A stretch of DNA of 63,256 nucleotides, counting the filler, from Diploschistes diacapsis (Eukaryota): assembly GCA_023645945.1 (NCBI GenBank). It is 6 parts of 6 records of this genome, joined end to end, with 100 filler letters (N's around TTAATTAATTAA, not from the genome) between each part and the next. Parts side by side here need not be neighbours in the genome. Positions count along the whole stretch, not along the records: positions 20,402 to 49,699 come from JALAIB010000136.1; 5 more parts are not named here. One strand, given 5' to 3'. Positions within the stretch are counted from its first letter, which is position 1. Each line of letters begins with the position of its first letter. Both the position numbers and the translations under genes were made by a program. This document shows positions 20,302-59,135 of this stretch, one piece after another. The notes under the pieces were generated by a model. That model did no database searches. It was given only the letters and a program-made list of their open reading frames with translations, and was not told the origin of the DNA.

Positions 20302-20401
20302 NNNNNNNNNNNNNNNNNNNNNNNNNNNNNNNNNNNNNNNNNNNNTTAATTAATTAANNNNNNNNNNNNNNNNNNNNNNNNNNNNNNNNNNNNNNNNNNN
20401 N
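20302..20401. other. Artificial contig spacer
   Basis: N44-TTAATTAATTAA-N44. Confidence 0.99.
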
Positions 20402-25794: not shown

Positions 25795-27906
25795 TTATAC
25801 ATTTCCTGCCGTCTCCGACTGGATGGCAAATTTTCTCATGAAATTGCTGCTTCCACTCCTTTCCACATCCCCAAAAACGGACTTCTTCGGCCTAGGCTTT
25901 GTTCGCACTGCATAGTGCAGCCGGCTGTCCATAGCGACCAGCACCTCCTTGGCTTCCGTGCGGGACATGTGTGATGCTCCCGAGTCTACGATCCGGCTGG
26001 ACATGTACTTGATAGCTTCCAAAAGCTCGTCCACCCCCTTGTTAAATTTCCTTTCTACTGCCGCATCAAGCGGATCACTCGGTCGATCACCGTCGTCAAT
26101 GCCGATGTCGAGCAAGGACATGCTGGTGCCTAGCTGATGGAAATCCATACTATGTTTGATCGTGTATGCTGGCTGGACTCGTAGAAATTTAGCCATTTGC
26201 GGAAGCTCTGGTAACAATGGCGCATCTTTAGTGAGATAGGAGATGTCTTTGAAAAAGAAGGCCAAGGCGAGCCGTCGCCGAAGTGTGCAACACGTGATTG
26301 TTGCGACTGGTATTGTTTTAGTTAGTTGTAGCTGTAGTTGCACGCTGTCAACCTTGCGGTAAATTGCCTCAAGCGAGGCAAGCATTTGTGGTTGGGAAAT
26401 GGAGGCAGACTCATCACCCAAACAAGCCTGCATGGCGTTGTGCAGTGGGAAAAGAAGCTCCGCTTCCGATACCAACGCGAGATCGAGAGACATGCAGAGA
26501 AGAGAGTGTATGAGGAAAGCACGAGTTTCAATAGAGAGACTATGACGCCGAGTTAGCAATTTGTTCCCCGTCAGAATGTTCAACACTTACTTCCTCCCAA
26601 TCTTCCCAAGTAGTGACAGGAAGTGCTTCAATTCGTGATTGCTCAAACTCCTTTGGGATGATTTTCCTTCTTGTGCTATCCTTGGGATAATCTTTGCACT
26701 CTGATCTAGAGCTTCTGTACTAGCACCAAGGTCGGAAAGAATCTCAGAGAGGAGCTCGGGGTTTAAAAGCTCCTGAGACTGCTCGGCTGCCTTCTCCACT
26801 ACTAGCAGATAGCCTTGGCGCAGATCTTCCTTGGATTCGAAATAGCAGTACCTTACTATCCACTCCAGAATATCTTTCGGAAGATGACCGGCTGCCGCAA
26901 TATCTGAGCAATTACCAGTAAGGATAGCAAGCTCCCTGTTCGGTGGTTCCTGAGGCCACAATCTAGATGGTCGCTCTTTAGAACGCGGAAAAGGTAGAAT
27001 GTTGACGGCCATTCCGGACTCCTCAAAAAATGACCACCTGGTCTTGACTTGCAATGCTTCTGCCCTCTGAAGAGCGCGCATCACTTTGTCGGCATCATCC
27101 CGGTCTTTGGGCAGAATCTTAGCAGCCACAGTCTCTGCGTTGAGGCTTCTGGGTGGCTCTCCCACGCCTCTGCATAGCTCCGCAGCTAGCAGACTTGCCT
27201 CAACCTCCGCCGCCAAATCAAGAGCCTTTTCGTATGCTGAATCCTCCGCATCTGCTTTCTCGGCTCGATCCAGCAAATGCGTTAACGAAAAGGTGTATTT
27301 CCTTTGCGGTTCAGAAATATCCATTTTGTCATGACTCCCAGTCCTTCCACTGGCACTCGGAAGTTTTCTAAATTTCAGCGACCTTGGCGTTGGGAGTTCT
27401 GGTTCGCTGCTTCCAAGGTCTGTTAGGGGCGAGGATGACTTCATTTTGGGTCCTCGCCTTAAGGTCTCATCAAGCTCCGCAAGTGAGCTGTCGGTGCCAG
27501 ATTCGTCGTCGGAGTTTCGAACAACGCTCTCGCCATTCTTGACAATACGCTGACTGCTTGTCAGCGTTGGCAGACCGAAGCTAGAAGCAGCACTTTGAAT
27601 CGAGGCGTTTGATGTCCGCGAAGGACGGATCGCGATATCCGATGGTGGCTCGGGAGTGTCACCACTAGCGACCGGAGTAAGAGCAGAGAAGCCGGATGAA
27701 CTTAACTCGATTACAGGATCAGGCTGCTTGTTGCCATCAAGCCTTGGATTTTTAGATAGCGGCGATGCCCCCCCATAATGGCTTGCCGAAGGCTCTTGCT
27801 CCGAGAGAGGACGCTTTGCTGGGGTATATGCCCTTGCAAAGGGCTTGAAGAAGTCTTTGATGTTTGCGTTCTTCTTACCGAGCTTCTCTCCATTCTGTTG
27901 CACCAT
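25795..27906 (-). CDS. Fungal hypothetical protein (disordered N-terminus, helical C-terminal domain); one short intron near 26540-26590
   Basis: Two long adjoining ORFs (439 and 263 aa) separated by a GTAAGT donor and CTAAC branch; C-terminus IVDSGASHMSRTEAK..LHYAVRTKP resembles proteins recalled from other Pezizomycotina; function not assignable by eye. Confidence 0.7.
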
Positions 27907-28315
27907 TGCTCACATTGAGTATACTGTACCGCTGACTTAGGGGACGAAACTTAATGCTAATGCTATTGTACCCTGCGTACGTACCTTAGTGCAAGTTTAA
28001 TAGAAGCGCGCCGGGTGCGCACAGAAGTTTGGAGTCGGAGGTTCTATAATCGGTAGACTAGAGGCAATGGTGGTCCCAGCCACCTCAGTAGCCCTCGGTA
28101 AGCGTCCAATTAGGAAGCGCCACCACTTCGGGTCAGCTTATACTAATACTTTGTGCCTCGAGAGCTGCGGGGTATATTAGATGTGCAATCAAGTCTATGA
28201 AGAATTGTCTACTCGCTCGCTCGCACTCTCCAACAGTAAGCATTGTTCGAAACAACCGTCGACTAAAGTGTGGTTCCGTATCAGTCTACTGCGACTTCAG
28301 ACGATCTTGCAGGCT

Positions 28316-31300
28316 ATGTTCTTAAGGAACTTTCTTCCATCCACCTGGCGCCACAGCTGCCTGACAGAACCAAGTATGCTTGGAGGTACAATTATTCCCG
28401 ACTGGAGTACAGTCTTTACCGGGGCTCTATTCGCTCTAACGATCGCGATCTGCTGCCATGCACTCTTCTGGCGTCCACAGAAGAAGAAAAGTACCTCGAT
28501 CCCGGAAAAGACATTGATCCCCAAAAAGACATTGATCCTGCGCATCGAAGAGATTCCAGCGGGTATACCGCACGAAACCCTTCAACACGATCTCGAATCT
28601 ATTGTCTACCAGAATCCAATATTGAGGAAGGACGAGATCACTGTATTGCAAGCCTCCTTCGTTCCAATAGACCGGAAGACGGCCTGTGCGACCGCTGCCT
28701 TCCATACATCGCTCAAACCGGCCGACCTGATTAAATTATGCCAAGCGCATATTGGTCTGCCTTACCGCTTCGATAACAAGTTCGATGGTATTACGCCGCT
28801 TTACGAGGCCAGTGGAGGTGCAGATGTTGAGTAAGCATACTCCCTCAATCAAGGGCCACACATCATACACTTACGCCACACTTATGACAGCGTAATCGCC
28901 GTTCCCGGCCTCGGGAGCCACGCGATTGGTTCGTGGAAATCTCCCAGTGGTGATGATCTTTGGCTTCGAGATTACCTTCCCCGTGATATACCAAATATTC
29001 GAGTTCTACTATATGGTTACGATACCTCACTTCTAGGCGGTGATTGTAAAGATTCTATTGAGGACCTGGGTATTCGCTTTTTGGAGTCGGTAAAGGCTTT
29101 TCGTGCAGACACTGTACGTGGGATCTGAGAATATTGAGGCCACGTGGCTTATTCTGTGATAGGCACATCGCCGTCCAATTATATTCATTGGCCATAGTTT
29201 AGGAGGCTTGCTGATAAAGGAGGTAAAGCTTTCCGCAGATCTCGACCGTCAGAGAATAGATATTCACCTCATGGCAGGCACTAATTTGGGCGCGCGATCA
29301 ATCCACCGACCCACAGAGCCTCAATTTCTGTAAAGCTTGTTACGGATTGCTTCTCTTTGGTGTCCCGAATCATGGATTGCGAAACGACCAGCTAAAGAGC
29401 ATCGTTGAAGGCCAGCCAAACGAACTGCTGATACATGATCTGGTAGTCGACAGCGACTCTGAACCCACTCCGTTTCTGAAGAGAATCTCTCGCCAGTTCT
29501 CCAATTATTACAAGGGTCAATACCAAGTCATATCGTTCTTTGAAAGAAAAAAAAGTCCGACTGTAAAAGTGAGATACGTTCTCAGGCCAGTAAGAGGGAA
29601 AGGTTAATAACCAAACTTTAGTTCCAGCCAGATGGACAATTGACCAAGACCGGTCCAATGATATTCATGGTAACGCAAGAGTCCGCGACAAGCACGGGCT
29701 TAACTGCGGCAGGTGGTGAAAATAACATTCCACTTAACACGGACCACTCGGGACTCGTGAAATACCAAAGCCGGAGCCAAGAGGAATATAAAATTGTGAA
29801 GTCGAAGCTTAGTATACTTGTCGATGAGGCAAAACAGGAGGTCTGCAGACGGTTTACAGAAAAGGGTACGTTGGTAGGCGCTTTCACTAGAACATCTTTG
29901 AATGTTAGCACTAATCTTCGGTTCTTAGGCTTGACGGACGAAGAGTCACACCTGTGGCTTAATCTCAATCGGCCGCCATACTCAGCATTTAGGTATTCAT
30001 CAAAACTTGCTAGACCTGAGAAAGGCACACTGGAATGGCTCGTTCAAGAAAAGCATGCCAATGATAATTCTGAACTTAGGGCCAATAGCATGCCTGAAGG
30101 AAGTCTATGCATGAAGGACTTTAAGTCATGGCGAGACTCAAAGGAATCGGAAATCCTTCTGATAAGTGCTTCACCTGGAAGGGGCAAGTCAGTACTGTCG
30201 AATTTTGTCTTGGGACATCTTGAACGCAAAATACAGGAGGAACCGTCGCCTCGCAGCAAGGTCATCTACTATTTTTGCAATATCAGGAATGACGATGCTT
30301 CACCTAACGCATGTTCTGTACTCCAGGCACTCATTGTTCAGCTTTGTGAGGATTATCAGCGCCTGTTTCGAATTCTTCCCTCGGACTACCAGAAAGTTAG
30401 CGATCGCTTCTTCTCGGACTCTTTTGACACACTATGGTACACATTTGAGAAAATGCTGCAAAATGACACGTATGCTCGGGTTTTTTGTATCATCGACGGC
30501 CTTGATGTTTATCAAGAAATGGGTGAACTGATCACGAAATTAAATAAGGCTTTTAGCCCCAGAACCGAAGCAAAAAGTCGGGTCTTGAAATTATTTTGTA
30601 CAACCAGGCCCTCAAAGCCCATACTCGAGTTGTTGAAACCATCAAAGCCCAAGATTCTTCGCTGCAACGAAGATGACCTCGCCATCTTCATTGAATCACG
30701 GGTCAGTTCTCTGGAAGAGACCTTCGGAGCTGAGATTATACAGAGCATTAAAGACCAACTAAATGAGAAGGCTGAGAACACGTTCCTCTGGCTCGAAGTA
30801 GTCACCAGGGGAATTAGATCAATCGAAATGCCTACCCCGTCAAAGATAAAAGACACAATCGAGGACAACCCTGAGGAGCTCAATGACTTATACCATCTTT
30901 TGGTAAATAGCCTAGTTAAGAAAGACAAAGACAAAGCTCGCCTCCTAGCTTGGGTAGTTTACGCAAGGAGTCCTCTTGATCTCAGGGCCCTGGAAGACGC
31001 CATGGCCATTGATCTGACAAAGACGTATACGAGCTACGAGCAATGTAACCCAGATAAGCCATCTCTGAAGTCAGAGACCTTCCACAATGTCTTTGGCACG
31101 CTATTTGATATCGTTGAAGATAAGGTGTACTGTATACATCAGTCTCTCAAAGACTACTTTGAGAGTCGAAACCCCCTTGAGGAGTTCTTAGACCGTAAAC
31201 ACCCTCGACTGGTTCTCGCACATGTTTCCATGGCATACCTTTCTCTGGAAGAATTTGGACATCCCTCAAGGGACATGAATATGCTCCTACACAAGTTTCC

Positions 31301-32588
31301 GCTGCTTCGATACGCCGCTAATCACTGGTATTCCCATATAGAAAGTGCAGCAGATATCACTTGCTCTCCTCCACTCCAGGACTTTCTAAAGGAGATTATT
31401 CCTCCTAACAACCTTAAGACACAAGTCTGGATGAGTGAACATGTCAGCAAAATATATCCTAACTACCCGTCTCGTATTAGTGAAGTTGCAATTTATTTCG
31501 ATATTGGATGGCTCGCAGAACTACTCCTAAACAGAGAGCCGTGCGGCATTAGTGATGACTTCGAAAGAAATTGTTTATCACAAGCCATGACACGCCAAGG
31601 AGCAGTGTTGGAAGTCTTACTGAAACACGAGAGAGTTTTGGCGCTGACAGTGACGGGTGGTGAGGTTCGATTCATTGCAAGATTTCAACACTTTAGAATG
31701 ATGAAACTCCTTCTGGATCGACGAGGAACAGACGTTCAAATCACAGAAGAAGTGGTAGAAGCCGCTGCAAGGAACGATAAAAATGGCAGAGAAATAATGA
31801 CACTACTTCTCGATCGACGAGGAGCAGACGTTCAGATCACAGAAAAAGTGGTAGTAGCAGCTGCAGGGAGCTGGGGAAGTGGCAAGGACGTAATGACACT
31901 TCTTCTCGATCGACGAGGAGCAGACGTTCAGATCACAGAAAAAGTGGCAGTAGCAGCTGCAGGAAATAATGAAAGTGGCAAGGACGTAATGACACTTCTT
32001 CTCGATCGACGAGGAGCAGACGTTCAGATCACAAAAGAAGTGGTAGTAGCAGCTGCAGAGAACTTTTGGAATGCCAAGGACGTAATGACACTTCTTCTCG
32101 ACCGACGAGGAGCAGACGTTCAGATCACAGAAAAAGTGGTAGTAGCAGCTGCAGGGAACTATTGGAATGCCAAGGACGTAATGATACTACTTCTCGATCG
32201 ACGAGGAGCAGACGTTCAGATCACAGAAAAAGTGGTAGTAGCAGCTGCAGGGAATAGCAAGGACTCAATGACACTTCTTCTCGATCGACGAGGAGCAGAC
32301 GTTCAGATCACAGAGAAAGTGGTAGTAGCAGCTGCAGGAAACCATGAAAGTGGCAGAGCAATAATGGCACTACTTCTCGACCGACGAGGAGCAGACGTTC
32401 AAATCACAGAAAAAGTGGAAGTAGCAGCTGCAGGGAGCTGGGGAAGTGGCAAGGACGTAATGACACTTCTTCTCGACCGACGAGGGGCAGATGTGGAGAT
32501 TGCTAAAGAGGCGGTAAAAGTGATCGCAGAACACTTTGATGAGGAAGTAATAACACTTCTTCCTGAGCAACAAGGAGCAGACGCCTAG
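28316..32588 (+). CDS. Fungal NLR-like STAND protein: N-terminal TM segment, SesB-like alpha/beta-hydrolase, NACHT, ankyrin-like 32-aa repeats; introns 28831-28890, 29114-29162, 29223-29277, 29569-29621, 29866-29928
   Basis: All five GT-AG introns splice in frame; VIAVPGLG..GSW..WLRDYLP..RVLLYGYD, IFIGHSLGG, FGVPNHG, DHSGLVKY; Walker A ASPGRGKS, Walker B IIDGLD, AENTFLW, IHQSLKDY, YAANHWYSH; nine LLLDRRG repeats; start could be ATG 28316 or 28376. Confidence 0.9.
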
Positions 32589-32630
32589 ATCACAGAGAAA
32601 GTGGTAGAAGCAGCTGCAGGGAACGACAAC
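31701..32630 (+). repeat. Highly conserved 96-nt (32-aa) tandem repeat array of the NLR sensor domain
   Basis: Unit MTLLLDRRGADVQITEKVVVAAAG-xxxx-KDV, nearly identical at DNA level (e.g. cgatcgacgaggagcagacg at 31811 and 31907); one unit is 29 aa; a partial unit continues after the stop codon. Confidence 0.97.
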
Positions 32631-33400
32631 CCTTGATGAAGAAATTGGGCAGGCACGGTACAGCGGTGTTTGTTGATGGCACAATGTGAGGCCCTAGCTT
32701 TTCGCGGATATCTTTGTGTAGATCCGCCGGACGGCTTCTATCATAGAAGTCAGGCTTGGTCTTGATGATAGAGCCATCAGTTAGGTCTTTGAGGTTTCTA
32801 AAAAGAAGGTTCTCCTGCGAGGGGATGTCGGCGGTGCCAGCGATAACCGGGAATATTTTGCTTATCACTATGTTTTCAGTTAACGCTTCTTCATTGATCT
32901 GTTGGAAGGCTTTAAATGCGTTCTTAGAGAAGCGCGATGGGGAGAGAGACGGCGTTGGCTGTGCTATCCTGTTGTTGATTTCTGCTCAATTGCTTGGTTT
33001 CGGAGCGCGATTGTTCATATGTATGCCATGGTCGATGAGGTGCTGCTCGAAGATAGGGTTATAGGTAGAAGATTTTCTGGTTTTCGAGGATGTATCCGAT
33101 TCTCTTCCAGTTTTGGCTCGTTTTCGGAAGCCCGATTGACTTGAGGGCATCATTCGATTGGAAGGAGCTGCGGTTTCGGGGTCTGGATGTTATTATACCG
33201 TTAGAAAGTTATCCGAGAAGGTTAAATCGAATTTATAATTCTGAGGTGTTCGAGGTTTGGTCTATCGTGTCTTGCGAAGCGTTTAAGCTGTATAAGGTTA
33301 ATGTTTTTCTTGTTAGTCCGTTCAGGTGGCATAAGAGCAGCAGATTATTCAATCCTTCGATTAAACTCTTGAAGTGCGTCGGGAATGAGTCACAGCCGTG
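32631..33400 (-). pseudogene. Relic of a fungal accessory-region PD-(D/E)XK-like protein, truncated and mutated
   Basis: LKRFARH..PNL.HLR; SSTYNPIFEQHLIDHG..PSN*AE..QPTPSLSPSRFS..F.NL.DLTDG..KPDFYD.SRP..LGPHIVPS..PCLPNFF; TGA at 32986-32988; ends abruptly at the NLR repeat. Confidence 0.65.
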
Positions 33401-34026
33401 ACAGATTATCCCAATAGGAATTAGGTGTCCGGTGTCGTTGCTGATTCTCGATCTTTCGACGTTTGGTGGTAGGCGGCCTTAAAGAGTCAGTCGTAGGCTC
33501 TGCTCCAACACACAGCTTTCGTTTTCGCTTGGGGGAGATATTGGAGTTCGATGCAGATACGGACGTAGCGCGCGTGACAAAGTTCCATGTTGGATACAGG
33601 AAGTTCCATATCTACTCTTTCACTCAATGCCTGTTACGTTACACAAGATTGGCGTGAGGAAAGCTCGGCCTATATTACGTACCAAAGATGGATCTTTCTG
33701 TATTGAAGCCATCCTTTATAATTACAGTCAAGACAAAGAGTACCCAGGTCACATGACAGTAGTTTAAGTTATACGCAAAAAACCTCCTGTTAAAGTGGGA
33801 CGAGAGGCTAAGAAGGAGCAGGAGAGATACTTGATTCCGCCTCAAACTTTCAATAAATTATCTGCAACCCTTACATGTTTCATGCTAGATACTATATATA
33901 TCTTTTGATTTTGCGTATTGTGGTCGCTCTAGACGCCCAAATTTCAACTAGGGTTTCCCCTTTCTGCATGATTTTTGCTCCTTATGCAATTAAATACTTT
34001 TGTCCATACCGTGTTCCTGCCAATGA

Positions 34027-37000
34027 TTAGCCAGCTATCCTTTCTAACGCCCTTTTCGACCACATAGTATGTGCATGCTCTTTGCCTAGACATTTGCCCT
34101 GCCCGTCAAGTGCACCAGCATGATGTCTTCTGGCAACATCAATATCCCCTGAAATTTCATATAAACAAGCCAAGACTGTTCATAGCCAATAGTGCATCTG
34201 GATGCTGCGGTCCCAAAGCCCTTTCCCGCCGTGTCACTACATCTCGTTGCATTGCGATAGCATCTTGGATTCTGCCCTGGTCCCGGTAACAGCGTGCAAG
34301 ATCCGACATTATCCAGATGGGATGTGGATGGTCTGGTCCTAGCTGCTGCCTCTCTATCGTCAGCACTTGCTCGTGCAACGCAGCTGCCTCGTGTGGCCGG
34401 CCTTGCTTGAGTAGACAACGACCTAATGCGTTCTTTGTCCACGAGATGTGCAGGTCTGTCTCAGGGAATAGCACTTCAAGAATTTGAAGGGCCCTGCGAT
34501 GTAGAAGTTCTGCTTCCTCGGTGCGGTTTAAATGCCTACATATTCGGCCGAGTTCGTTGACTGTGAGTACGATGTCGAGATAATCCTAGGGCAGAGCTTA
34601 CTCTTAGCAGTTGAGCGCCTTCCTTTGCATGTTTTCCGCAAGTTCCGCCTTCCCTTGCTGGTCATATAGAATGCCCAAGCTATTTAAAAGCCAACAAGCA
34701 TTGGGCAAAAGAGTTGTATGAGAGCCAGCTGACTCTGCAAGCGCTGCCTCAAACATTTGAACGCCTCTGTCTAATTGGCCTGCCATGGTGTACTCTCGTG
34801 CAATATCGCGGACAATAATTGATCTCTCGAAGTTGGAGATCTCCCGCACAGAAGGCAAAGATGAGTTCGCTTTTGATGTCAACATCATCTCATCAAGCCG
34901 AAATAAGGCTCTCTGAATATCATTTAGGTCTTCGATGGAAGAATCATGAGCATCTGGCCTTTGCCTGGACCACGATCCAACTTTCTTTTGAAGCTTGACG
35001 ATATGTTGGAGGGGGAATGGCCGATCTCCAGATATCAGGGATCGTGCAATCCATATGGAGCGTCGGTCAGGAGATGCCACAAAGTCACTATACAATAAGT
35101 GAAAACTGTCATCACACTTAGACGATGATAAGTGATAGCACCAATTCTCCGTTGCATATCGTGCGAGTGGATACTCAACCGTATCTACATTCACAGTGTC
35201 GGCGATACCCTCCAAAGCCAAGTATGACAGCAGCGTCTCCACAATCTCCTGATGAGCCATCTCTTCCCTTATCTGGAAAACGTCCTCGTCAGGAGATGAC
35301 TGCATGTTATTAGCATGGTTGAGAATGTATTCATGGACAGAGTGATGAGCGAAGTGGAAGGTGTCTTGACGGTAAGTGGCCAGAGGACAGCACAGTTCCA
35401 ATACCGAGTCTCTGAATGGAGCCAACTATTTGCAGAAGACTTTTCTCTTTCCGTCCCATGACAAGGCGCACTGCAGCTCTTCCCAATGTAATGGGCTTGC
35501 GCTACCACATATCCACAGAAAAACCCTCCGAGCTATTTCTTGTCTTGCAGACGACTCACACCTGAGACGGTCTAGTAGAAGGCCGTAGACATTGTCCAGG
35601 CCATGGGGTAACTCATCCAGAGCCTTTGTCATTTCGCACATATTGATAGTTGATTGAAGAGTTTGAATGCACAAATGAGCATAGAGGAACATGCCATCGG
35701 CCTTTCTAGAAAATACTGTGAACATGCGCTCTTTTAAATTGTCATCATGATAGGGCAGGTCATCCACGGCTTTCTTTAGGTACCTATCAATATCTAGCTT
35801 GGTTGATATCGCATCCACATGTATTGAATCCGCCTTGTCCAGTTCCCTGCGAATGCCGAGCACGTTCCTAGAGAGGCAGATCAGATGCAGTGATGGCAGT
35901 GCTTGTGCAGCAGCTGTAAATGATCTTGTTATTTCCGTGACGTTCTCGGACTCGTCCAGGCCATCAATCACTAAGTAAAGAGCCGGCAGAGATCTCACTA
36001 CTTGTTCAAACATGGAGAATACATGGTCCGAGGAGGAAACGATAGTTCGGCCATAGGCTTTCGCACTTTGATAAGTACTCAGTATGATTTCGGGGATGTC
36101 ATCAACCTGAGCCAGTATTTGTGCCAAAATGCTTGCACAGATGTCTAAAAGGGAAATTTTCTTCTTGTCGGCCGAATAGCAATAAAAGTATGCTACTAGC
36201 GGCCCGTCCATCTCCGTACCACTTCGTAGTTGCTCGAGGTGTTCTACCACGATTGTACTGAGAACTGTTTTACCCGAACCAGGGGCCCCAGAAATCCAAA
36301 GGCTTTTCGGAAAGGAATGTGAGAGGTCAAGCCATTGCTGGAAGACGGGATGCTCAAGGAGCCATTGACCGGTCCCTTGCAACCGCTTGGAGATAGCTTG
36401 CTGAAAGTCTTCCCAGTATGCGACGCGGTTGAGCCACGCCATGACCGAATTCCGCGTCTCCAGATTTCCGAGATTAGCAATATATTATGGCAAAATTCTC
36501 TGCATAAATGTGGGATTTACCAGTACGTCGGTTTTTTCTCTCATTTTTTATGTGAGTGTCGATGCGTTGCCTCGAGCACAATGCCACTTCTGCGTTGAAT
36601 ACGTTGGTACACTGAGAGACAAGCCGGAGGTTGTCCCCAAATTCTGCCTCGAAAGGCTGGAATACTGTTTTGACAAATACTCTAAAAGCTTTGCCCGATA
36701 TTAGTGTCCGGCATGATATGAATGTAAGCAGCGACCGAAGGACACTAGTTACCGCTCCCTGTAAGGACGTCTCGCACTAGTTGTAAAAACAGAAGAATAT
36801 TAAGGTATAGGTTTACCCACGAGGCACAAACTCGAGGTTCCTCAGCGAGCATCCTTTCGTATTGGCAAGATATTGAGATAACATCGCTGAGTTTCGAAAT
36901 CGTCTCTGAGATTAGTCGAAAGTAATAGAAAGAGCCTCGAGCTATCTTCGCTCAATTAGCCACCATATCGGGGAAAGTTGTGGTCATGGCTGTTCAAATC

Positions 37001-37110
37001 AAACCGCTTACCTCCAATAACATTTCGAGAGAACCCCAAATTAAAGCAGCCGGGCTGACTTCGTACTGGACCATACTATCTACGGCTGGTGAGAATCGTA
37101 TAAGGAAAGG
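34027..37110 (-). pseudogene. NACHT-TPR NLR-like pseudogene with helical N-terminal domain
   Basis: N-terminal FSPAVDSMVQ..PAALIWGSL; GTGQWLLEHP.FQQW, WISGAPGSGKTVLS, LVIDGLDES, KADGMFLYA, HHSVHEY; TPRs LNSLGILYDQQG, LGPDHP, LGPQHPDAL; stops at 35426, 34604, 34598, 34586 and frameshifts near 34165 and 34070. Confidence 0.88.
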
Positions 37111-37741
37111 GTCGCCTCCCTCTAGCCACGCGTATATTATATAGCTCGTTGTGCAGCTGAGATTGACCGGTTATATTGATTGACTGGGCTCAGCTCCAAG
37201 TCCAAGACGCCCTTTTTCTGCTCTGCATACGCCGGCCCACCAAATCACATGGGTGGAAGCGCATGCCTTCACCGAAGAGCTGCATTAGCTTGGGGGCACA
37301 GACCCAATATCTATGTCTTTTGCGCTGCTACCTGAGAGGTAGGGTTCTTTCCATCTGCATGCACCTCATCCGTTAGCTTTGACGATTACATTGCATCGCG
37401 GCCATACACAGGCTTGATATCCCCTCACAAACTATGCGTACGCTGCTGAATTGATGACGAGGTCTCAAGAGGTGGCTGAAATTTCCTGCACCAACAAGCA
37501 CCTATCTTTTTCCAACCTTCGGGTTCTTAAAGATGGCCTCGCAAACCCTGAGGTCCAGCCTGTAAAGACTAAATTACACCTCTTAGCTTTCTACATCGGC
37601 GAGTTCTGACAGAGGCGTGCGTAGACTTGGAATATGTGATACGAGGTACGGAACCCATAATCTTGAGTGTAGGAGCCATGCCATTCTACTTGTGACATTT
37701 CATCGCTAACTTTCTTGGGTAAATTAGGAACAAAGAGCGCC

Positions 37742-38540
37742 ATGTCTCAATTTGTCCAAGTCATACACACCGTTGCCGCTATGAGACGCATCCGTTCTAC
37801 GTTGTCCGAGCCGGTTGGTTTCGTACCTACGATGGGTATGCTTCACGAGGGCCATAAGTCCCTAATACGGCTTGCTTCACACCAAACATCTTCTATTATT
37901 GTTTCCATCTATGCCAATCCATCCCAGCTCGCTCCATCAGAGGACGAAACTTCCTATCCATCTGTGTTGGAATCTGATATGAGTGAATTAAGCACACTGG
38001 ATGAAGAGTTTTGCTGCAATAGTCTAGGGAGGATAAAAGCCGCCTTTGTACCGAAAGATAGGGACATGTATCCTTCCGGGCATCCTGGCAAGATAGCTAG
38101 TGGTATCGGAAGTTCTGTGAACGTTCTGCCATTATCGAAGCTGCTTGAGGGAGCCTTGAATCCAGCACACTTTGTGGGAGTAGCCACTGTGTGCTTAAAG
38201 TTCTTCATCGTCCTGAGACCGGGAAAAGTGTATCTCGGAGAAAAGGACCTCCAACAGAGTCTTATTGTCAAATGGCTTGTGCTCGACTTTCCTGGTGGAT
38301 ACGGAAGTAATTGTTGGGCCCACAATCAGGGAAGTTGATGGGCTTGCCATGAGTAGTCGAAACCTCTTCCTTGGGAGCCGAAGGCGAAAGGTCGCAATCA
38401 TATTGAGAAAAGCGCTTTGTGCTGCTGAATCTTCCTACCTTCAAGGTCAAAGAGTTACAGTACACATCCTGCAGCCTTGTATTGCACTGGCAGAGGAAGA
38501 ACGCAATAGGCAAGATAGTATAGTATTACAACCCACCTGA
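37742..38540 (+). pseudogene. PAN6: Pantoate--beta-alanine ligase (pantothenate synthetase) homologue with a frameshift near 38290 and short C-terminus
   Basis: VGFVPTMGMLHEGH, VSIYANPSQ, HFVGVATVCLK, YLGEKDLQQ; after the frame change LVDTEVIVGPTIREVDGLAMSSRN. Confidence 0.85.
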
Positions 38541-39501
38541 ATATATGTTTATCTTTGACGTATAAACATGGAGAGGTGTCGTGAGACCCTCTCTCAGGTT
38601 CTCTGATGAGATAGCACCGAAACTCTCCGAAGTACGTTGGCGGTTGTTCCTGAACATGGCAAATGGGCGAATGAATTGGTGGGTTTGAAATGTCTTTTAA
38701 TTATATACGGATTATTTGAAAGGCTCCATACTTGGCCATTGATGTAGATGTGAATATGTTGAGGTGCTGTACGGAGTAGAGTAATGCCGAATAGGCTTTA
38801 TGCTTGGGCGGTATACTAACTACGGTATCAGGCATAAACTATGTTAATACGCGCTAAGTTTTAGATGTACAAAGTTATCACTGTTTTACGATTTCTTTCA
38901 ATTTTTACACAGCATATACGACAGTGACTTGCTGCTCTGCTGTGACACTGGTCAGCATCTCGATGAGCCTGCACAATAGGGGCGGAGAGGATAAAGAGGC
39001 AAGCAAATAGATCAGGATGTAAGGAGCTACCAAGAGAGTCCGAGACAGCATGACCCTGTTACTGCTGCTTTCTCCACTTTGGCGCGTCTGCTTGTGGGAC
39101 CCTCAAATTGGCCTGAGCTTGGGCAAAGAAGCTGGTGTAACCGTCCAGGTTTCGCATCTCCGCGATGGATCGCCGCCACTAGTGAAGGTCGTCTTCTACA
39201 TCCCAAATGGCGGAGGATAAGATAATGATACAGCCGACGGACCTATTCCGAGTTACCTTCTAAAGTCCATATAAATACTTGGCGTGATTGTGTTGCGAAT
39301 ATCCCGTCCACCTTCAAAACGTCCCAGTATGTATCGAGGCACTCGAGAAAATTACTACGTGGCAAGTTTTACACGTAAGCCATCCAAATGTCATAGACGC
39401 TAGATGACAACTCGTTTCACATCCGTTTCAACGGAAGCTGTTCAGCGCCCTTTCCCATTGTGACTTAGCACCAATTTTGCCGCATCAGGTCTTCCATTTT
39501 T

Positions 39502-39601
39502 GTCTCAAGACACTCGTCTCTACCCATTATTCGTCTCAAGACATTCGTCGTCCCCAGACGCTGGTCTTAAGACACTGTCTACGGACATCCAGTCTCGAGA
39601 C
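39502..39601. repeat. Array of quasi-palindromic GTC-N4-GAC decamers
   Basis: GTCTCAAGAC 39502, GTCTCAAGAC 39533, GTCCCCAGAC 39550, GTCTTAAGAC 39564, GTCTACGGAC 39577, GTCTCGAGAC 39592. Confidence 0.85.
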
Positions 39602-40139
39602 GAACCATGGCTCCCCCCAAAATTCCCCTCATTTACACTCGAGTAACGTCCTTCACTCTGTCCACTCATCGATATCTCCCGTATTTTTATTTTTATTATG
39701 TCGTGTTCCGTGGCTGCCACTGAACACTTTAAACCCCTCCCACTAGAAAATTACGTTCGCATCGTCGCCCTCGGGCCTGATTTGCGGAAAGTCTCCGTTT
39801 ATGGCACAACAGAGTTCCTTCACCACAGCTCCAGCATCGAGGTCTTATCACTCCTGATACTTTTAAAATGGTCGTATCCGAGCTTTAAGGCTTCGCCATG
39901 CTGGGACATGGTCATCAGCCTTGTGGCTGCTGTGGCACGCAAATTCACAATTCACCCTATTCTGCACGCAATTAGTCGCAGGCATAAATCGAAGGGCTCT
40001 GTAGAGAGCGCTTCATCTTAGCTTTCCATCCATCGCAAAATGACCCCCCGTTTGGTCTTTGATATATGTTGTGCACGTCAAAGCCTACATCGTTCTCATT
40101 CTTGTTATCGGCATCTAGGTAGGCATTCATATCGCTAAC

Positions 40140-42278
40140 ATGGCTGAAGCAATTGCCATCGTCGGACTTGTCGCCTCGATCGCCTCTCTTATCGGCCTCA
40201 GCGCCAAGCTGGTCTCTCAACTATATGATACCACCTCTAAGTCCACAGACATTCCCGAATCGTTTCGTTCTCTGTGGATTCGGTTGCCTTTACTGACGGC
40301 AACACTCCAACACATCCAGTCCCAGGCAGAGGCTGGCTGCGTTCCCGATGATGTAACGAAAGCCCTGTAAGCTGTCGTCGACAATACCTCCGAGCAAGTA
40401 TCAACTGTACAAATCTGTCTGTCGAAGGTCCTCCCATCCGATGGTGCCTCGAGGCTGGAGCGGGCGTTGAAGGCATTGAAGAGTCTGGCCAAGGAAGAAC
40501 AAGTACAGCAGGCTTTTGGAAAGATACACAAGAATAATGATATCTTGATATTGTACCAGACGACACGGCATGTCGGTACGGGTGACCGTATTTTGGAAGA
40601 ATTGTCGAAATTGAATGTGGCACCACCAGCATTGTCAAAGTCGTTTGGCGTATGCCTTGGTCGAGCACCTCAGATTGCAGCAGATGACTTGACTGGACGA
40701 AAAAACGAGTTGCAGCAATTACAAGATTGGCCCTTTCCGAAGAATCAACCTAGTCGTCAACGCATCGTCAGTATCGTGGGCATAGGAGGCATAGGTAAAA
40801 CACAGCTGAGCCTGGCACATGTACGGGAGTGCGCCGATGACTATTCATCAATATTCTGGATAAATGCGAAAGACGAAACAAGCTTGAGACGGAGTATGGC
40901 AGATTTGAGTGCAGTGGTTTTTCACGAGTCTGCCAATCTTGCGGCACAGTGCGGATGACGAGAAGCTCAAGGTCGATAGGGTCCGACAGTGGCTCTCAGA
41001 GACTGGGAATAACCAATGGCTTTTGATATTCGACAACTATGACAACCCCCCTCTACCGGGAATGGACAGTTCACCAGGATACGATATCCGAGCATACTTC
41101 CCACATCAAGCACATGGCTCGATCCTGATCACAACGCGTTCGCCACAACTCCTGTTCGCAAAACAACTTCCTTTGAAGAAACTAGAGGATGTTGAACAAA
41201 GCTTGGCTGTCCTGGCAGCTAGGTCGGGCCGCAGGATTTATGGGGGTGAGATCAAGGTTTCAAGTTATAAGACTGATTATTACGGCTGACCTAATGGCGA
41301 TTTGAAGATCCCTCAGCAAGGAGTCTTACATTACGTCTCGATGGGCTGCCCCTAGCACTCGCAACAGCTGGCGCATATCTCAGCCAATCAACGGATAGCT
41401 TCGATGACTATCTCGATTTATATAACAATAACTGGAGCGATCTCAGCCAGTACAGTTACGGGCCGATAGAACTACGAGGAGCGAACTTTATATTCGACAT
41501 GGAACATATCATTTCAGCAGGTCAGGGACTAGGATCGTATAGCGGCGGAGCTGTTAAAGCTGATGGCATACTTGGACAATCAAGATCTCTGGTATGAACT
41601 TTTTAATAAGGATATTAGTAATGCACCGGAATGGTGGATTGAGCTGCAAAAAAGCCGGGTGAGATTTAACCGGGCGATCTCGATATTGCACAGCCACTCT
41701 CTTCTCGAGTCGATGTGAGAAAGTATAGCCTACATACCTGTGAGCACGACTGGACGCTGGAGCACCCCAATCGCAGATTTGACCAGGAGAGATGTCGGAT
41801 CGCCCTTCACTGTGTAGCGGCGAATGCAAGCTGGGAATCAGAAGCGGAATACTGGGTGAAAAACCGGCGGCTGCTGCTACACGCACGCCGGTTCAAGCAC
41901 ATTCGAATAAAGGAAGCGATCGAATGGAGTGCAATCGAGCCCGAAGATCTGCACCAGTTTGCAAAACTATACCGGTAAAACGATATGATCGCTGAGGCGG
42001 AGAAGATGTATCGGCGGGCGCTGGATGAAAAGGAGAAAGCGTGGGGCCCGGACCATCCCTCCACACTCCGTACTACTAATAACTTACGCTTGCTCAATGC
42101 TAGCCGAGATGGGCATATAGAAGTGGGAAAGATACATTCACGGGCGCTCGATGGAAGTGACAGGGCATACGACACTGACCGGCATCCACAATCACCACCA
42201 TCAACAGGGAAAGCCATTTTAAACAAACTTAAAGCTGGCATACGGAGGCAGAAAAAGGCTTTGCAGAACGGTAGATAG
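40140..42278 (+). pseudogene. SesA (HeLo-like) - NB-ARC - TPR NLR-like pseudogene
   Basis: MAEAIAIVGLVASIASL..P.SFRSL..RLPLL..TL (SesA-type N-terminus); GIGGIGKTQL, WLLIFDNYD, GSILITTR, LDGLPLALATAG; TPR AEAEKMYRRAL..WGPDHPSTL; stops at 40368, 41530, 41976 and frameshifts near 40950, 41470, 41712. Confidence 0.88.
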
Positions 42279-42320
42279 ATCTCGTTAGAATGCTCACTTT
42301 ATCTGATGGATTAGAAAACG

Positions 42321-42366
42321 TAATAATAATAATAATAATATAATCATAATAAATATTATTATTAAT
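42321..42366. repeat. (AAT)n / (ATT)n microsatellite at the right edge of the NLR island
   Basis: taataataat aataataata taatcataat aaatattatt attaat. Confidence 0.85.
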
Positions 42367-43764
42367 AGACTATCTGTATGTAGCTTTGTACGAAAAGGGA
42401 TAGTTAAGCGAGAATAAATGCTTCGGCGTTAGAAAGGGTATCCGGTTTTGTGGATTGGTTCTCATCCCGGGGCTAGAGGTATCTAGCTGAAAGGGAAGAT
42501 ACACTTTAGGGCTTGGTGAGGTTGAGGTTGCAATGAATGGGCCTGAATGGCACCCGTACACTACTACGCCCTCCGGAAGCATCTTGAGATGATCATTGCC
42601 CATACAAAGTGCTAAATATCTTTCCCTTGATCTGCGTTTGGGGTCACTGTGAGTCTGTGCCCCCCCGGCTCTCTTCCCAGTCGATGCCGCAGTCATCGTG
42701 GTTTCAAAACTCCGGAGTCACTGACAGACTGCTTTCCGCATCCCAGCCATTACAAATAAATAGGGTTTGCAGTGACTCTCTGTACCATTGAATGCGCCGT
42801 CAGGAGATCACGGGTCATTGGAAAGATTACTACTATAAGCTCCTAAATGAAAGGCTCAGGGTGTCGCCTGAATGGCGGAGCAACTTAAAGCGGTAGTTTA
42901 AGGAGATGAAGAGCATGGGTGGGTGGGATGACTTAGTTCAGGGCCGCTGATCAGGACACAGAGACGACGCCGTTGGAGCCGGGAGAAGCTATTAAAAATT
43001 AAAAACGGTGTGGCCCTATCCTACCTAGTATTGCTAATGCCGAGAGAGACAGTAGACAGTAGCTGATCGAGTAAGCAGCAACGGCGGAAAAACGACGGAG
43101 AACTTCTCACTTCCCCCCCCCTTCCCTTCCCTCTCCCCTTTGCTATGTAACGATTACCTAGTCGTAGTATACTTCCCTACTACTTGTCCACTACAGAGTC
43201 TCTCTTTTCTTTTCCTTTCCTCCTCTCATCATAGCTTTGGGTTTCCCTTTACGAGCTGCGACACCCACAGGCTCACAGTTCCACCCAGGATATGCCACCT
43301 TAGCAATCGGAGATTCGGTTACCTCCCGTAACTCCGCCGAGCTTACAACTAAACACCACCGAGCCTTGTGCAGACCTCTCCAATCTTTCTCCCTTGAACC
43401 TCCTATCTCGTGCAAATCGCACCAGCAGCTAGCGAGCAAGTACATACCGTAATCCTTGACAGACGCAGCGACGCCACCATTGTTGCGTACGGAACGTTTC
43501 TGTTGTCGTCGGTCTTCGCAGCTTCGTCTTACTTCCGCTTTATCCGGACCGCTGTAATAGCGCAAAGAACACTTGAAGTTACCACAAATTTATGTGAAGC
43601 AAGAATCGCAGCAATCTCTGACTTCCGCATTGTCTAATAGGCGATAACTTCGGAGCCCTCCTGCATGGGAATTCACGTGCAAGAATATCCACTTTCGGTA
43701 CTGGGCAGTCCTTTGCATTTCAACTCTGGATGACCACGACTCAAGAGAAGCAACAACGGCGGCT

Positions 43765-46700
43765 ATGGCTGAGCAGCCGTTGCCAAATGGCGTCAGCATT
43801 TCGAAGCCGGCTAGGAGAATACGATGGGCGACCCAACGCGTTGGTACAGGAGTCGCGCAGGTAAAAAGAAATCGTATCATGAGTAGACTATCTCTGCGAG
43901 GCTCAAGCAATGAGATGAAAAGAGAATCTGGTAGTTCTGGCTCGATAGGCAAGCATTCGCCTTCTACCGATGCGGCTGGCGATGGGGAAGGTGGAAGGCG
44001 GATATTCTTCAACATGCCACTGCCGGCCGATTCGAGAGATGAGGAGGGGAAGCCGCTCGTACATTACAGTCGCAACAAGATTCGCACCGCCAAGTACACC
44101 CCGTTGACTTTCATACCCAAGAATTTGTGGTACCAATTTCACAACATTGCAAACGTCTATTTTCTTACCCTCATTGTGTTAGGGGTAAGTCTTTTTTCTC
44201 AAGGAATGCTTGTTGCTGGCCTAACCATCAGTTCCAGTTTTTTAGTGTTTTTGGAGTCAACAATCCAGGCCTCAACGCCGTACCCCTGATCGTGATTATC
44301 GTTCTTACGGCGTTCAAGGACGGAATCGAAGATTGGCGGAGAACCGTACTCGACAACGAGCTCAACAATGCGCCGGTACACAGGCTCATGGACTGGGAGA
44401 ATGTCAACTCTGCGGAGGATGAGGTTTCGTTGTGGAGGCGAATCAAGAAGGCAACCTCTCATGGTATTCTTAACACCTTCCATACCTGGCAGCAATGGAG
44501 GAGGCGGAAATCTGGTGGTGGAAGAGGCTACACCGAGAGGGCTATGGACGAGGAGCGCATGTCTATCGACACTAGGCGCTCTTCGTATAGGGGCCCCAAA
44601 AAGTCAACAAACGAGGGCGGAATCCAGATGACCCCTGTTTCTTCGCCTCTTCCCAAAGATCAATCCGAGGCCGAGCTTTCTCGGGCAAATGCCAGGCTAC
44701 GGTCAAAAACCACGTATTCGTTCAAAGCGGGAGAAACGGACGGTATAGAAGGAGACGGCGTCGCAACTGGTCACGGCCACGCATCTGCAGGTCCGTACGG
44801 TAGCTTAATAGATCCTATCGAGCAGACTCGTGGCAAAGCTCGTTTCAGAAAGGATTACTGGAAAAACGTCCATGTTGGGGACTTCGTTAGGATACACAAT
44901 GACGACCAAATCCCCGCCGATATTGCCATCCTATCCACGTCGGAACCGGACGGTGCCTGTTACGTCGAGACTAAGAACCTTGATGGAGAGACAAACTTGA
45001 AGGTCAGGCAGGCACTACACTGCGGCCAGGACATCCGGCACGCGACAGACTGCGAGAAGGCACAATTTATTCTCTATAGCGAGCAGCCTCACACGAATCT
45101 CTACGCGTACAGCGGGCTATTAAAGTGGACTCAGCGCAAATCGTCGGACCCGCAGCGCTCAGAGGTGGAAAAGACGGAGCCCTTGACGATCAACAATCTG
45201 CTGCTTCGTGGATGCAACCTACGTAACACGGAGTGGATAATCGGAGTTGTCGTGTTTACCGGCCCCGACACCAAGATCATGCTGAATGCGGGCATCACAC
45301 CTTCGAAACGTTCGAGAATCTCTCGCCAGCTGAACTATAATGTGCTGTACAACTTCACTATCCTTCTGATAATGTGTCTCGTCTCTGGGATCGTCAATGG
45401 AGTAACGTTTGGGAAAAGCCACGATTCATGGAACTTCTTCGAATTTGGACAATACGGTGACACTCCCGGCGTTACTGGTCTCATCACTTTCTGGAGCGCC
45501 ATCATTTTATACCAGAACTTGGTCCCAATCTCCCTTTATATCAGTTTGGAAATCATCAAGACCGCACAGGCCTTCTTCATCTACAGCGATACTTATATGT
45601 ACTATGAGCGTCTCGATTACCCCTGCACACCCAAATCCTGGAACATATCCGATGATCTTGGCCAAGTTGAGTACATCTTCTCGGACAAAACGGGAACATT
45701 GACGCAAAACGTCATGGAGTACAAGAAGTGTACTGTCAACGGGGTTAGCTATGGCGAAGCTTACACAGAGGCTTTGGCCGGTATGCAAAGACGGCAAGGG
45801 ATCGATGTCGAGGCGGAAGGTGCAAAGGCAAAAGAGCAAATCGCAGAAGATCGGATCCGGATGCTCAAGACCCTAAGAGGGATCCACGACAATCCCTATC
45901 TCCACGATGACGAGCTTACCTTCGTTGCTCCAGATTTTGCGGAAGACTTAACGGGAGCAGTGGGTGAGGAGCAAGCGGAAGCGAATAAGAATTTCATGTT
46001 GGCTCTTGCTCTCTGCCACACCGTCACCACCGAAAGGACCCCGGGAGATCCTCCGAAACTGGAGTTCAAGGCCCAGTCGCCCGATGAAGCAGCATTGGTT
46101 GCGACTGCTCGAGATTGTGGCTTCGCTGTGATGGGCAGGCAGAACGACACAATGATCGTTAATGTGCAAGGAGTCGAGGAGAAGTTCGAGGTCTTGAACA
46201 CGCTCGAGTTTAATTCTTCACGAAAGCGAATGAGTGCCATTATTCGCATGCCTGACAACAGGATCGTACTTTTCTGCAAAGGTGCTGATAGCGTCATCTA
46301 TTCGCGTCTGAAGAAGGGTGAACAGAGTAAGTTGAGAAGGGACACTGCCGAACAGTTGGAGATGTTTGCGAGGGAGGGCTTGCGCACGCTTTGCATAGCT
46401 CAAAAGGTTGTAACCGAGGGGGAACACCAACGGTTCAGCATGGAGCATGACGCTGCCGCCACTGCAATAAATCATCGGGAAGAAAAGATTGAGGAGGTCT
46501 TCGACGCCATGGAAAGGGATCTTTCACTGATAGGGGGCACTGCAATCGAAGATCGTCTGCAAGATGGTGTGCCGGACACGATCGCACTGCTTGGGCAAGC
46601 CGGCATCAAGCTCTGGGTCTTGACGGGCGATAAAGTCGAAACCGCAATCAACATTGGATTCGCGTGCAATCTGCTGAGCAACGAGATGGATCTCATCGTA

Positions 46701-48483
46701 ATGAGATTCGAGACTGACGATCTCGGACTTGTAGAGGCAGAACTTTCGAAACATCTGCACACTTTTCAAATGACGGGCTCAGACACGGAGCTGAGAGCTG
46801 CTAGGAGGAATCACGAAGCTCCGGCTCCCACGCACGCCATCGTCATTGATGGCGACTCATTGAAGCTAGTGCTTGATGAGCAGGTTCGACGGAAGTTCTT
46901 GCTCCTTTGCAAACAATGCAAGGCCGTTTTGTGTTGCCGTGTCAGCCCAAGTCAGAAAGCGGCTGTCGTGCAGATGGTCAAGAATGGACTTGACGTGATG
47001 ACGCTTTCTGTTGGAGATGGTGCCAACGATGTCGCTATGATTCAGGAGGCAGATATAGGAGTCGGCATAGCTGGAGAAGAAGGTCGCCAAGCAGTCATGT
47101 CGTCTGATTATGCCATTGGCCAGTTCCGGTTCTTGCAAAGGTTGGTTCTCGTTCATGGTCGCTGGTCATACCGGCGCTTGTCAGAGACTATTGCGAATTT
47201 TTTCTACAAGGTAGGTTGCTCGTCGCTAATCTAGCGAGAATTCCTGCTAATCCTCGCAGAACATTGTCTGGACCTTTGCGCTCTACTGGTACCAAATCTT
47301 CGACAACTTCGACTGCAACTATCTCTTCGACTACAGCTACGTCCTCCTCTTCAATTTAGCCTTTACGTCGCTACCAATCATCTTCATGGGCATTCTAGAC
47401 CAAGACGTCAGCGATAAGATCTCTCTGGCGGTACCGCAACTATACAGGAGAGGTATCGAGCGCAAAGAATGGACGTCACTCAAGTTCTGGATGTACATGT
47501 TGGACGCTCTGTACCAATCCGTAATATGCTATTTCATGCCATATTTTCTGTTTGCTCCGGCTCGATCTGTTTCGTCGAACGGCCTCGACTTGAACGAAAG
47601 AGTTCGCTACGGAAATTTCACTGCGACGTCTGCCATCTTTGTCGTCAACTTCTACGTGTTGATGAATACCTATAGATGGGATTGGTTGATGGTGCTACTG
47701 ACCAGTATCAGTATCCTCTCCGTTTGGTTCTGGTCTGGCGTTTACAGTTCTTTTGTCGGGTCCGACACTTTCTACAAGGCGGGCGCAGAAGTCTTCGGTG
47801 CATTATCATATTGGGTTACAGCACTTCTGATTATCATCATTTCCCTTCTACCCAGATTCGCCGTCAAGGCGTTCCAGAAGGTGTTCTTCCCCTATGATGT
47901 CGACATAATCCGCGAGCAAGCAAGGCAAGGCAAGTTCGGATACTTGGACGACTTGCCATCCGATGCTTCTCCAGCCAAGCTCGCGGGCGGCAACTCATTC
48001 AATGGGGCTAGATCCGATGAAAATGCATACGGTAGGGCCCCCAAGTCCCTCGAGGAAGACATGAGACCAATTTATCCTCCATCAGTTGCACCCACCTTAA
48101 AGACAACGACAACGAATAACCGACACAGCACAAGCGGCAGCATCAACTCGGTGAATATCGGGCCAGCGATCTTTGAAGAATCGCCTGTAGAACCTCATTC
48201 GATGACCGAGCCTAGCAATAGACCCACCTACTCGAGGCCCACTTCATACCAGAGCCCGGTTTCGCTAGAACCACCTGTGCCACTGGAACGAGTTCGTACC
48301 TCGATGGACCGACCAAGACCGTCTTTCGATAGAATACGCAACTCCATGGACATTGTACGTCCCAGTTTCGAGGCCAGCAACGACTTCACCTCGGCGTCGC
48401 GGCTGATGAAGCTGGATTCAAATCATTCCGAACTCCCTTTGCCGTCGCCGCGACTTTCGAAAGGACCATCGAACCTCCGGTAG
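43765..48483 (+). CDS. DNF1: P4-type ATPase phospholipid flippase, Dnf1/Dnf2-like; introns ~44185-44238 and ~47211-47259
   Basis: NKIRTAKYTP, ETKNLDGETNLK, QNLVPISLYIS, FSDKTGTLT, QSPDEAALV, KGADS, WVLTGDK, CCRVSPSQKA, GDGANDVAM, GQFRFLQRL. Confidence 0.95.
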
Positions 48484-49699: not shown

Positions 49700-49799
49700 N
49701 NNNNNNNNNNNNNNNNNNNNNNNNNNNNNNNNNNNNNNNNNNNTTAATTAATTAANNNNNNNNNNNNNNNNNNNNNNNNNNNNNNNNNNNNNNNNNNNN
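49700..49799. other. Artificial contig spacer
   Basis: N44-TTAATTAATTAA-N44. Confidence 0.99.
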
Positions 49800-56479: not shown

Positions 56480-56579
56480 NNNNNNNNNNNNNNNNNNNNN
56501 NNNNNNNNNNNNNNNNNNNNNNNTTAATTAATTAANNNNNNNNNNNNNNNNNNNNNNNNNNNNNNNNNNNNNNNNNNNN
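56480..56579. other. Artificial contig spacer
   Basis: N44-TTAATTAATTAA-N44. Confidence 0.99.
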
Positions 56580-57696: not shown

Positions 57697-58098
57697 CGGT
57701 ATTAAAAGTAGGATGATGAGAGCATGTCAAAACGATATTTTCGATTGCTAACTACGGCTCTATGAGAGTAGGAATATGAGTCAAGATGATCGAGAACATT
57801 CTTCATTTCTGCTGTTCCACTCGTTCCCACAAACAACCGACGAGTTTTGCATTTTTCATTTTCAACCTAAGCTTTATTTATACCAGCTATATTCCACTAC
57901 ACGGGCCAATGCTCGATGAATTTCACGAAAGTCAGAAAAACCATTGCATGATTGCAAATTCAGTATGCATTTGCTGGTATCAATATGAACAGATCATGAT
58001 GTAGCATTCATGAAACCTTCCCATCTCCCATGATTCTTTCATCAAGAACACCCATGTCGCTAAACACCCAAACTCGTTTGTACCATCATGTCGAAGCT

Positions 58099-59135
<1,037 letters not shown>

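Follow-up and report, generated by a model that had tools for sequence, protein, structure and literature searches.

A candidate NLR–pantoate ligase pair within a small, decaying cluster of unrelated NLR genes in the lichen fungus Diploschistes diacapsis

In a 63,256-nucleotide stretch of DNA from Diploschistes diacapsis (GenBank assembly GCA_023645945.1; hereafter ‘the window’), we see a 14-kb patch (28.4–42.3 kb) in which three mutually unrelated NLR genes lie close together with housekeeping genes on either side. We consider it likely that this patch is a settled accretion: a small, mixed NLR cluster of three independent modules, one of which joins an NLR to a paralog of the pantoate ligase PanC/PAN6. 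The modules would be A, the receptor NLR1; B, NLR2 together with the PanC paralog (‘PAN6-B’); and C, NLR3 and its neighbours. More tentatively, and from sequence comparison, we suggest that NLR2/PAN6-B represents an undescribed, conserved immune module of lichen-forming fungi—a receptor coupled to a catalytically intact PanC paralog that might serve as bait, signal maker or effector—lying beside a Starship-moved NLR family; a proposal that we regard as quite possible rather than probable. Contig C402 (29,298 bp; from a fungal assembly of 29.1 Mb) supplies positions 20402–49699 of the window, the only part contiguous with the patch; the other parts are unrelated contigs.

NLR2 (34033..37113, minus strand) is a pseudogene of DUF7708-NACHT-TPR architecture, carrying four in-frame stops and one frameshift near position 34170. 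The gene itself preserves NACHT and TPR regions, the N-terminal DUF7708 domain being seen in its full-length relatives, in one of which this end gives a weak match to Goodbye (E 0.0024); neither its first exon nor any prokaryotic relative was found. It is single-copy in this genome, with 47% identity at its own locus and 28% at the next best match. A short divergent spacer of ~630 bp (37114..37741) separates NLR2 from PAN6-B (37742..38522, plus strand), such that the two genes are arranged ‘head-to-head’. PAN6-B is likewise a pseudogene, with a frameshift near 38291 and the C-terminal ~75 amino acids gone; its Pantoate_ligase match is split over two frames and ends near residue 262 of 335, and the HxGH, NPxQ, KDxQQ and SSRN motifs are all retained. 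Both members of the pair are dead in the window.

The intact, resident PAN6 of this genome is found on another contig (C761), beside a DEAD-box helicase gene, and is 41% identical to PAN6-B. A tree of 55 PanC proteins places PAN6-B in a separate clade (support 0.959) together with members from Teloschistales, Heterodermia, Agyrium and others; the resident copy falls outside, as do the proteins of Psora, Botrytis and Monilinia, and PAN6-B is therefore not an ortholog of housekeeping PAN6. Across 25 sequences of the clade residues H37, H40, N61, Q64, K170 and Q174 are invariant, and all six are also kept in the window copy; they are the equivalents of His44, His47, Asn69, Gln72, Lys160 and Gln164, the catalytic set named for PanC in PMC5772511. 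PAN6-B shares both its fold family and its catalytic residues with PanC/PAN6 (PF02569; PDB: 1iho, 1mop, 9b2q), but stands apart in its separate clade, its distance from the resident copy, its linkage to an NLR, and in pocket-adjacent changes at sites nearly fixed in other PanC proteins (QF to QL, D73 and the arginine of SRP). A viral scan with PAN6-B returned three loci, at 33–38% identity.

The sequence-only reading had listed the PAN6 copy as incidental cargo, a view not borne out by its clade, its head-to-head placement or its apparent linkage to relatives of NLR2 in other fungi. We judged this linkage from locus tags and from exact longest-contig sizes; the PanC search used for pairing covered proteins of 322–2000 aa among 670 candidates, and the 20 proteins looked up were top matches or lay near the window’s clade, rather than being chosen at random. 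In Fulgogasparrea, an NLR2 relative (P0292; Q9201_005039) and a PAN6-B protein (P0122; Q9201_005040) carry adjacent tags on one 31,091-bp contig. The same longest-contig size as a PanC match was seen for seven of 25 NLR2-relative records, compared with 0/100 for NLR1 and 0/120 for NLR3; in five of these seven, the match is same-source and in the PAN6-B clade (6,211; 19,713; 31,091; 31,462 and 40,250 bp). Linkage persists with NLR identities down to 35–60% and PanC identities down to 51–67%, and spans Diploschistes and Teloschistales, with NLR2 and PanC identities co-varying over six pairs (rho 0.64; 10/720 permutations). We think it probable that NLR2 and PAN6-B make up a conserved module of two genes, which were lost together at this locus. 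Our literature search, outside which most subscription papers lay, found neither an NLR–PanC pairing nor a pantoate ligase as Starship cargo described. Separately, P0320 and P0139 both have a longest contig of 3,428 bp, such that a sister-clade NLR may pair with a PanC nearer the housekeeping clade; this could mark the origin of the NLR–PanC pairing, or be a coincidence.

In a working module B, PAN6-B would be an active enzyme, the TPR region of NLR2 would monitor the enzyme or its product, and the DUF7708 end would act as output. We infer both the coupling and its direction by analogy with the proposed guarding of SEC-9 by PLP-1; the linkage on which they build is demonstrated in part. The specifically guard-type version, with the TPR region watching over PAN6-B or what it makes, strikes us as rather doubtful. 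Guard models have been proposed for PLP-1/SEC-9 and HET-E/HET-C (PMC12881547), and these are the closest precedent, in that an NLR is tied to a conserved housekeeping-type protein; here, by contrast, the partner would be a dedicated PanC paralog beside the NLR, with the housekeeping copy elsewhere, and NLR2/PAN6-B comes without a known incompatibility phenotype.

Several observations weigh against such a module. Pairing elsewhere consists of one adjacent-tag pair plus contig sizes, with order and orientation seen in the window alone. Two of the seven size matches (P0320/P0139 and P0435/P0151) are cross-source, one of them involving a bacterial-type HPPK-PanC fusion, so that size matching is not error-free; eighteen of the 25 NLR2-relative records come without a PanC match, among them some from Lachnellula and Rutstroemia that fall in the same clade; and the co-varying identities can stem from shared species history. 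NLR2 and PAN6-B might accordingly be mere co-passengers of an old block, with PAN6-B a metabolic paralog (supplying extra pantothenate or acting as a new amide ligase) that has no role in NLR signalling. The unlinked records fit this, as does the retention of catalytic residues alongside changed pocket neighbours, a pattern expected of a neofunctionalised enzyme; yet the linkage holds at the low identities and across the taxa given above, and both genes have died in the window, so we regard co-passengers as unlikely. PAN6-B could also be the output itself, the activated NLR turning on an adenylating enzyme whose activity depletes ATP/pantoate or yields a signalling molecule. Speaking for this are the invariant catalytic residues, the fact that the DUF7708 end has only the weak Goodbye match (killing by Goodbye-like domains being unproven; PMC9815663) and the receptor–effector gene clustering described in fungi; but no fused NLR-PanC form was present among the proteins retrieved, no amyloid-type motif was noticed by eye at the N-terminus of either NLR2 or PAN6-B, and we rate an output role as less likely again.

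The ligands of most fungal NLRs are unknown, and an enzyme gene kept beside a receptor names a candidate ligand or output; an intact NLR–PanC pair would make this question testable with two genes. If true, the NLR2/PAN6-B module would connect the surveillance of non-self in fungi with the vitamin B5 / coenzyme A pathway, which could plausibly be a point of exchange within the lichen symbiosis. That an NLR cluster is present, is decaying and has ties to Starships is to be expected and carries little weight.

All three NLR genes have the tripartite arrangement of STAND proteins: an N-terminal effector, a NACHT or NB-ARC domain with Walker A/B motifs, and a repeat sensor. With three NLRs inside 14 kb, the patch fits the definition of a fungal NLR cluster applied to Sordariales (at least two NLRs separated by <40 kb and by fewer than eight intervening genes; PMC12258605), where 47 of 272 clusters hold 3–5 NLRs, 108 mix NB types and paralogs are few. 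The mixing of types is alike, but our patch lies in a lichen fungus, has two dead members, and has NLR2 head-to-head with a non-NLR enzyme. NACHT matches occur on 40 contigs of the genome, with two separate full domains on C402 only; given 40–100 randomly placed NLRs, 0.008–0.12 NLR triples within 14.2 kb are expected by chance. No close own-genome paralog was found for NLR1, NLR2, NLR3 or the PAN6 copy, the next best matches being 28%, 28%, 32–34% and 41%, and recent duplication of any patch gene is ruled out, the longest own-genome DNA match being 123 bp. This match is a dispersed piece (38936..39058) that is 81% identical to contig C736, where we also observe stop-ridden TPR fragments and, by eye, nuclease-like and MADS-box-like relics.

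Every part listed in the sequence-only reading—three NLR architectures, a PD-(D/E)XK-like relic, a PAN6 copy and a palindrome array—was found again. Its statement that the first NLR alone looks intact holds: NLR2 and NLR3 are broken by stops and frameshifts, and neither the PAN6 copy nor the DUF7924-like relic is whole. A birth-and-death NLR cluster, as it proposed, agrees with what we see: two of three NLRs dead, no relationship between them, no close paralogs, and a layout within the published cluster definition. A small correction concerns the left edge: NLR1 most likely starts not at 28181 but at 28376, the point from which relatives align. A mixed-architecture, decaying NLR cluster is an already known kind, and ordinary as such.

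NLR1 (28376..32588, plus strand) is encoded by six GT-AG exons that yield a 1310-aa protein without internal stop. Working from the N-terminus, the chain comprises a hydrophobic membrane helix (aa 10–31), a ferredoxin-like domain (aa ~46–139), a SesB alpha/beta hydrolase, a NACHT domain and ankyrin repeats. The ferredoxin-like domain could be assigned to no specific structural family (best Z 8.1, Foldseek E >0.001). In the hydrolase the lipase motif GHSLGG is found at residue 236, in line with the GxSxG of SesB-like lipases, and D-H are also present; a predicted model of the NLR1 relative P0080 resembles serine hydrolases (E 2e-5), and another relative, P0003 from Zopfia, gives weak DUF676/Abhydrolase_6 matches. 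A lipase motif occurs in 32 of the first 80 matches to NLR1, with a similar N-terminal helix in 17 of 31 (the window’s own record excluded). Profile matches comprise NPHP3_N/NACHT and nine DUF7104/ankyrin stretches, the Walker A motif takes the family form ASPGRGKS and Walker B reads IIDGLDVY; over ~1300 aa, identity is 65% to P0003 and 60% to P0005 from Gyalolechia.

The ankyrin (DUF7104) array (31710..32630, plus strand) contains ~9 near-identical repeats of 96 bp, the last being cut by a TAG at 32586. Mean DNA identity among seven full units is 86%, with variation concentrated at unit positions 21–25 and 28; the match of these seven repeats to their consensus, scored in a simple way in place of T-REKS, is 0.85, above the threshold of 0.7 for high internal conservation. 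NLR1 thereby resembles the Podospora Pa_7_10370 type (PMC13449251, PMC4986451), which likewise has a SesB lipase, a NACHT domain and near-identical ankyrin units with few variable positions, but it adds the membrane helix and the ferredoxin-like domain; the word ‘transmembrane’ is absent from three NLR surveys. From its anatomy NLR1 is a live receptor, and by analogy with its family (PMC4986451, PMC13449251) the variable ankyrin repeats would sense a ligand, the NACHT domain would oligomerise, and the SesB lipase, held at the membrane by the N-terminal helix, would attack membrane lipid and bring about cell death. A lipase NLR anchored in the membrane is a minor but testable detail; it adds novelty to a lesser degree than the NLR–PanC pairing.

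Directly abutting the array at ~32630 is the DUF7924 / PD-(D/E)XK-like relic (32632..33500, minus strand), which carries stops and frameshifts and is truncated at this junction. It is 30–37% identical to seven own-genome paralog frames, of which five match DUF7924 (three above cut-off); an Atlas lead to PDDEXK_12/DUF7924 scored <0.9.

NLR3 (40140..42278, plus strand) is a SesA-NB-ARC-TPR pseudogene with three in-frame stops, ~3 frameshifts and a shortened TPR region. Its family is widespread: NLR3 is 93% identical to an unnamed protein, 69–74% to proteins of Teloschistales and Heterodermia, 63% to Rhinocladiella and 49% to Cladonia, with own-genome paralogs at 32–34%. Upstream of the gene lie four GTCTYNAGAC palindromes at 39502, 39533, 39564 and 39592, spaced 31, 31 and 28 bp apart (array 39502..39601), followed by a non-coding element (39655..39936). 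The two-unit palindrome pattern has a single site in the 29-Mb genome (reversed control, 0), which rules out the array as an active repeat; the same array is found directly at the 3′ end of the closest full-length NLR3 relatives, metagenome loci L062 and L066 (75% over 71 bp), which are 80% identical to NLR3 in DNA over 2 kb and 99% alike. In loci L074, L080 and L083 the non-coding element has conserved counterparts ~600 bp upstream of SesA genes, and in L078 it makes up an inverted pair of ~500 bp that encloses the NLR. An open reading frame (ORF) at 39647–40021 was rejected as a gene because it has no Pfam or usable Atlas match and the DNA that it matches in relatives is non-coding.

Among 33 metagenome loci with NLR3 relatives, we scanned the neighbours for Pfam domains in 106 of 130 ORFs from 12 loci, the NLR frames themselves and L066 duplicates being dropped. 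A DUF3435 captain lies 3.8 kb upstream of the NLR in L062/L066 (above cut-off in L062) and ~3 kb upstream in L080/L083; L078 has a ferric reductase as neighbour and L074 a DUF7924 gene. NLRs are known Starship auxiliaries (10.1101/2021.12.13.472469), in lichens too (PMC13486527), and the taxon pattern reported for the Tangerine NLR (PMC13486527) is like that of the named relatives of NLR3 (Teloschistales, Caliciales and Chaetothyriales). The NLR3 family is thus associated with Starships in its relatives; module C would then be stranded Starship-type cargo delivered to this site, its decay carrying a C-to-T bias; we count in it NLR3, the non-coding element and palindrome array upstream of the gene and, probably, the DUF7924 relic. 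Against this, captains were found in only three (two independent) of 12 long loci scanned; L057, L058, L061 and L086 sit amid ordinary genes; and NLR1, NLR2, PAN6 and the flanks are absent from all 33 loci. As to the decay, derived changes in NLR3 number 62 C>T/G>A compared with 26 T>C/A>G, but the excess is just mildly CpA-biased (CA 23/284, CG 18/240, CT 15/260, CC 6/222), window-level (composite) indices for repeat-induced point mutation (RIP) are negative across the patch, and one NLR3 stop replaces a Lys; RIP is possible but, the CpA preference being weak, not established.

Other features of these loci are recorded in passing. L067, L068, L073, L074 and L078 carry one SesA N-terminus on different cores (kinase, NACHT-ankyrin, other NB-ARC-TPR); in L078 (9274–13441) the NLR sits inside the inverted pair, whose copies are 73% alike and could belong to a Pack-type transposon; and L080 (678–7399) is Starship-like, with PD-(D/E)XK nuclease, SAD/SRA-domain and cytosine methyltransferase genes preceding the captain. 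In the D. diacapsis genome, DUF3435 fragments share contigs C154 and C3847 with NB-ARC/TPR matches, the captain pieces on C3847 being without stops, and two cytosine methyltransferase genes, one of 725 aa, are seen on C2868 and C4022.

The patch as a whole could instead be one degraded Starship whose captain was lost, with every gene its cargo. Alternatively, it could still function in heterokaryon incompatibility, kept by balancing selection, other individuals having live NLR2 and NLR3 alleles. A comparison with contigs from two related sequencing runs, X2 and X3, bears on both readings (X1 may be the source and was not counted). For a single Starship one can point to three NLRs and a DUF7924 relic between housekeeping genes, to 14 DUF3435 matches on eight contigs and DUF3723 on five contigs of the same genome, to the captains beside NLR3 relatives, to an AT-rich run at the right edge (a TAA microsatellite, 42321..42352), and to the counting of captain-less regions with at least three hallmark matches as degraded Starships in a preprint (10.1101/2021.12.13.472469). 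The hallmark tally here consists of three NLRs, only NLR3 being tied to Starships, and in this the patch departs from Starships and Tangerine: C402 has neither DUF3435 nor DUF3723, and no ferric reductase (FRE) or PLP was seen among the window ORFs scanned. The edges share no direct or inverted repeat of at least 10 bp, bearing in mind that Starship repeats can be 4–5 bp; X2 and X3 contigs cover 30 of 30 bins of the patch, an X3 contig (27754–28695; 19 differences in 970) bridging the left edge; no joint across the patch, as an empty site would give, was seen in the four runs compared; and NLR1, NLR2 and PAN6 occur in 0/33 NLR3 loci. A single recent insertion is therefore unsupported, there being no captain or DUF3723, no convincing terminal repeats and full cover by X2 and X3, and we judge the one-Starship explanation improbable. 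The sequence-only reading was right that no captain is visible; its idea of large-element cargo finds support for NLR3 and neighbours only.

A working incompatibility locus draws on the high identity of the NLR1 ankyrin repeats, a property of the Podospora ankyrin-repeat NLR class under balancing selection (PMC13449251), and on the contigs themselves: an X2 contig differs from NLR1 at 208 of 1216 letters and X2 joints carry the ankyrin array further, and an X3 contig (32561–33551) that crosses the array/relic junction has 77 differences in 991 letters, as compared with three in 764 for an X3 contig on the left flank (25983–26745). Two of the three NLRs nonetheless carry several independent lesions, and the comparison is of two related runs, with some of the additional X2 contigs perhaps representing paralogs or another organism; we hold this to be the least probable of the readings considered. 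Separate arrivals at a tolerant site, that is, the settled accretion of three modules, fit best. One X2 contig lacks the palindrome array, but with just 23 letters on one side. Contigs of X4 (organism B) match NLR3 (1735 letters, 55 of them different), the relic (20/353) and the non-coding element, and leave NLR1, NLR2, PAN6-B and most flanks uncovered, a contig gap being no proof of absence; recent horizontal transfer is conceivable.

To the left of the patch, a hypothetical gene without Pfam family (25795..27909, minus strand) adjoins genes for V-ATPase subunit E, a NIPA transporter and a HIS6-like protein; to the right lies a P4-ATPase phospholipid flippase (43765..48483, plus strand; DNF1/2-like). 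The names HIS6, NIPA and DNF1/2 are those we presume from Pfam matches. GC content within the patch is ~0.43–0.50, marginally lower than in the flanks. Five artificial spacers (N44-TTAATTAATTAA-N44) separate the joined contigs of the window, at 6710–6809, 13519–13618, 20302–20401, 49700–49799 and 56480–56579; on another of these contigs, tandem units of 228 bp (58092–59062) are found, which from unit length and sequence we take to be probably polyubiquitin.

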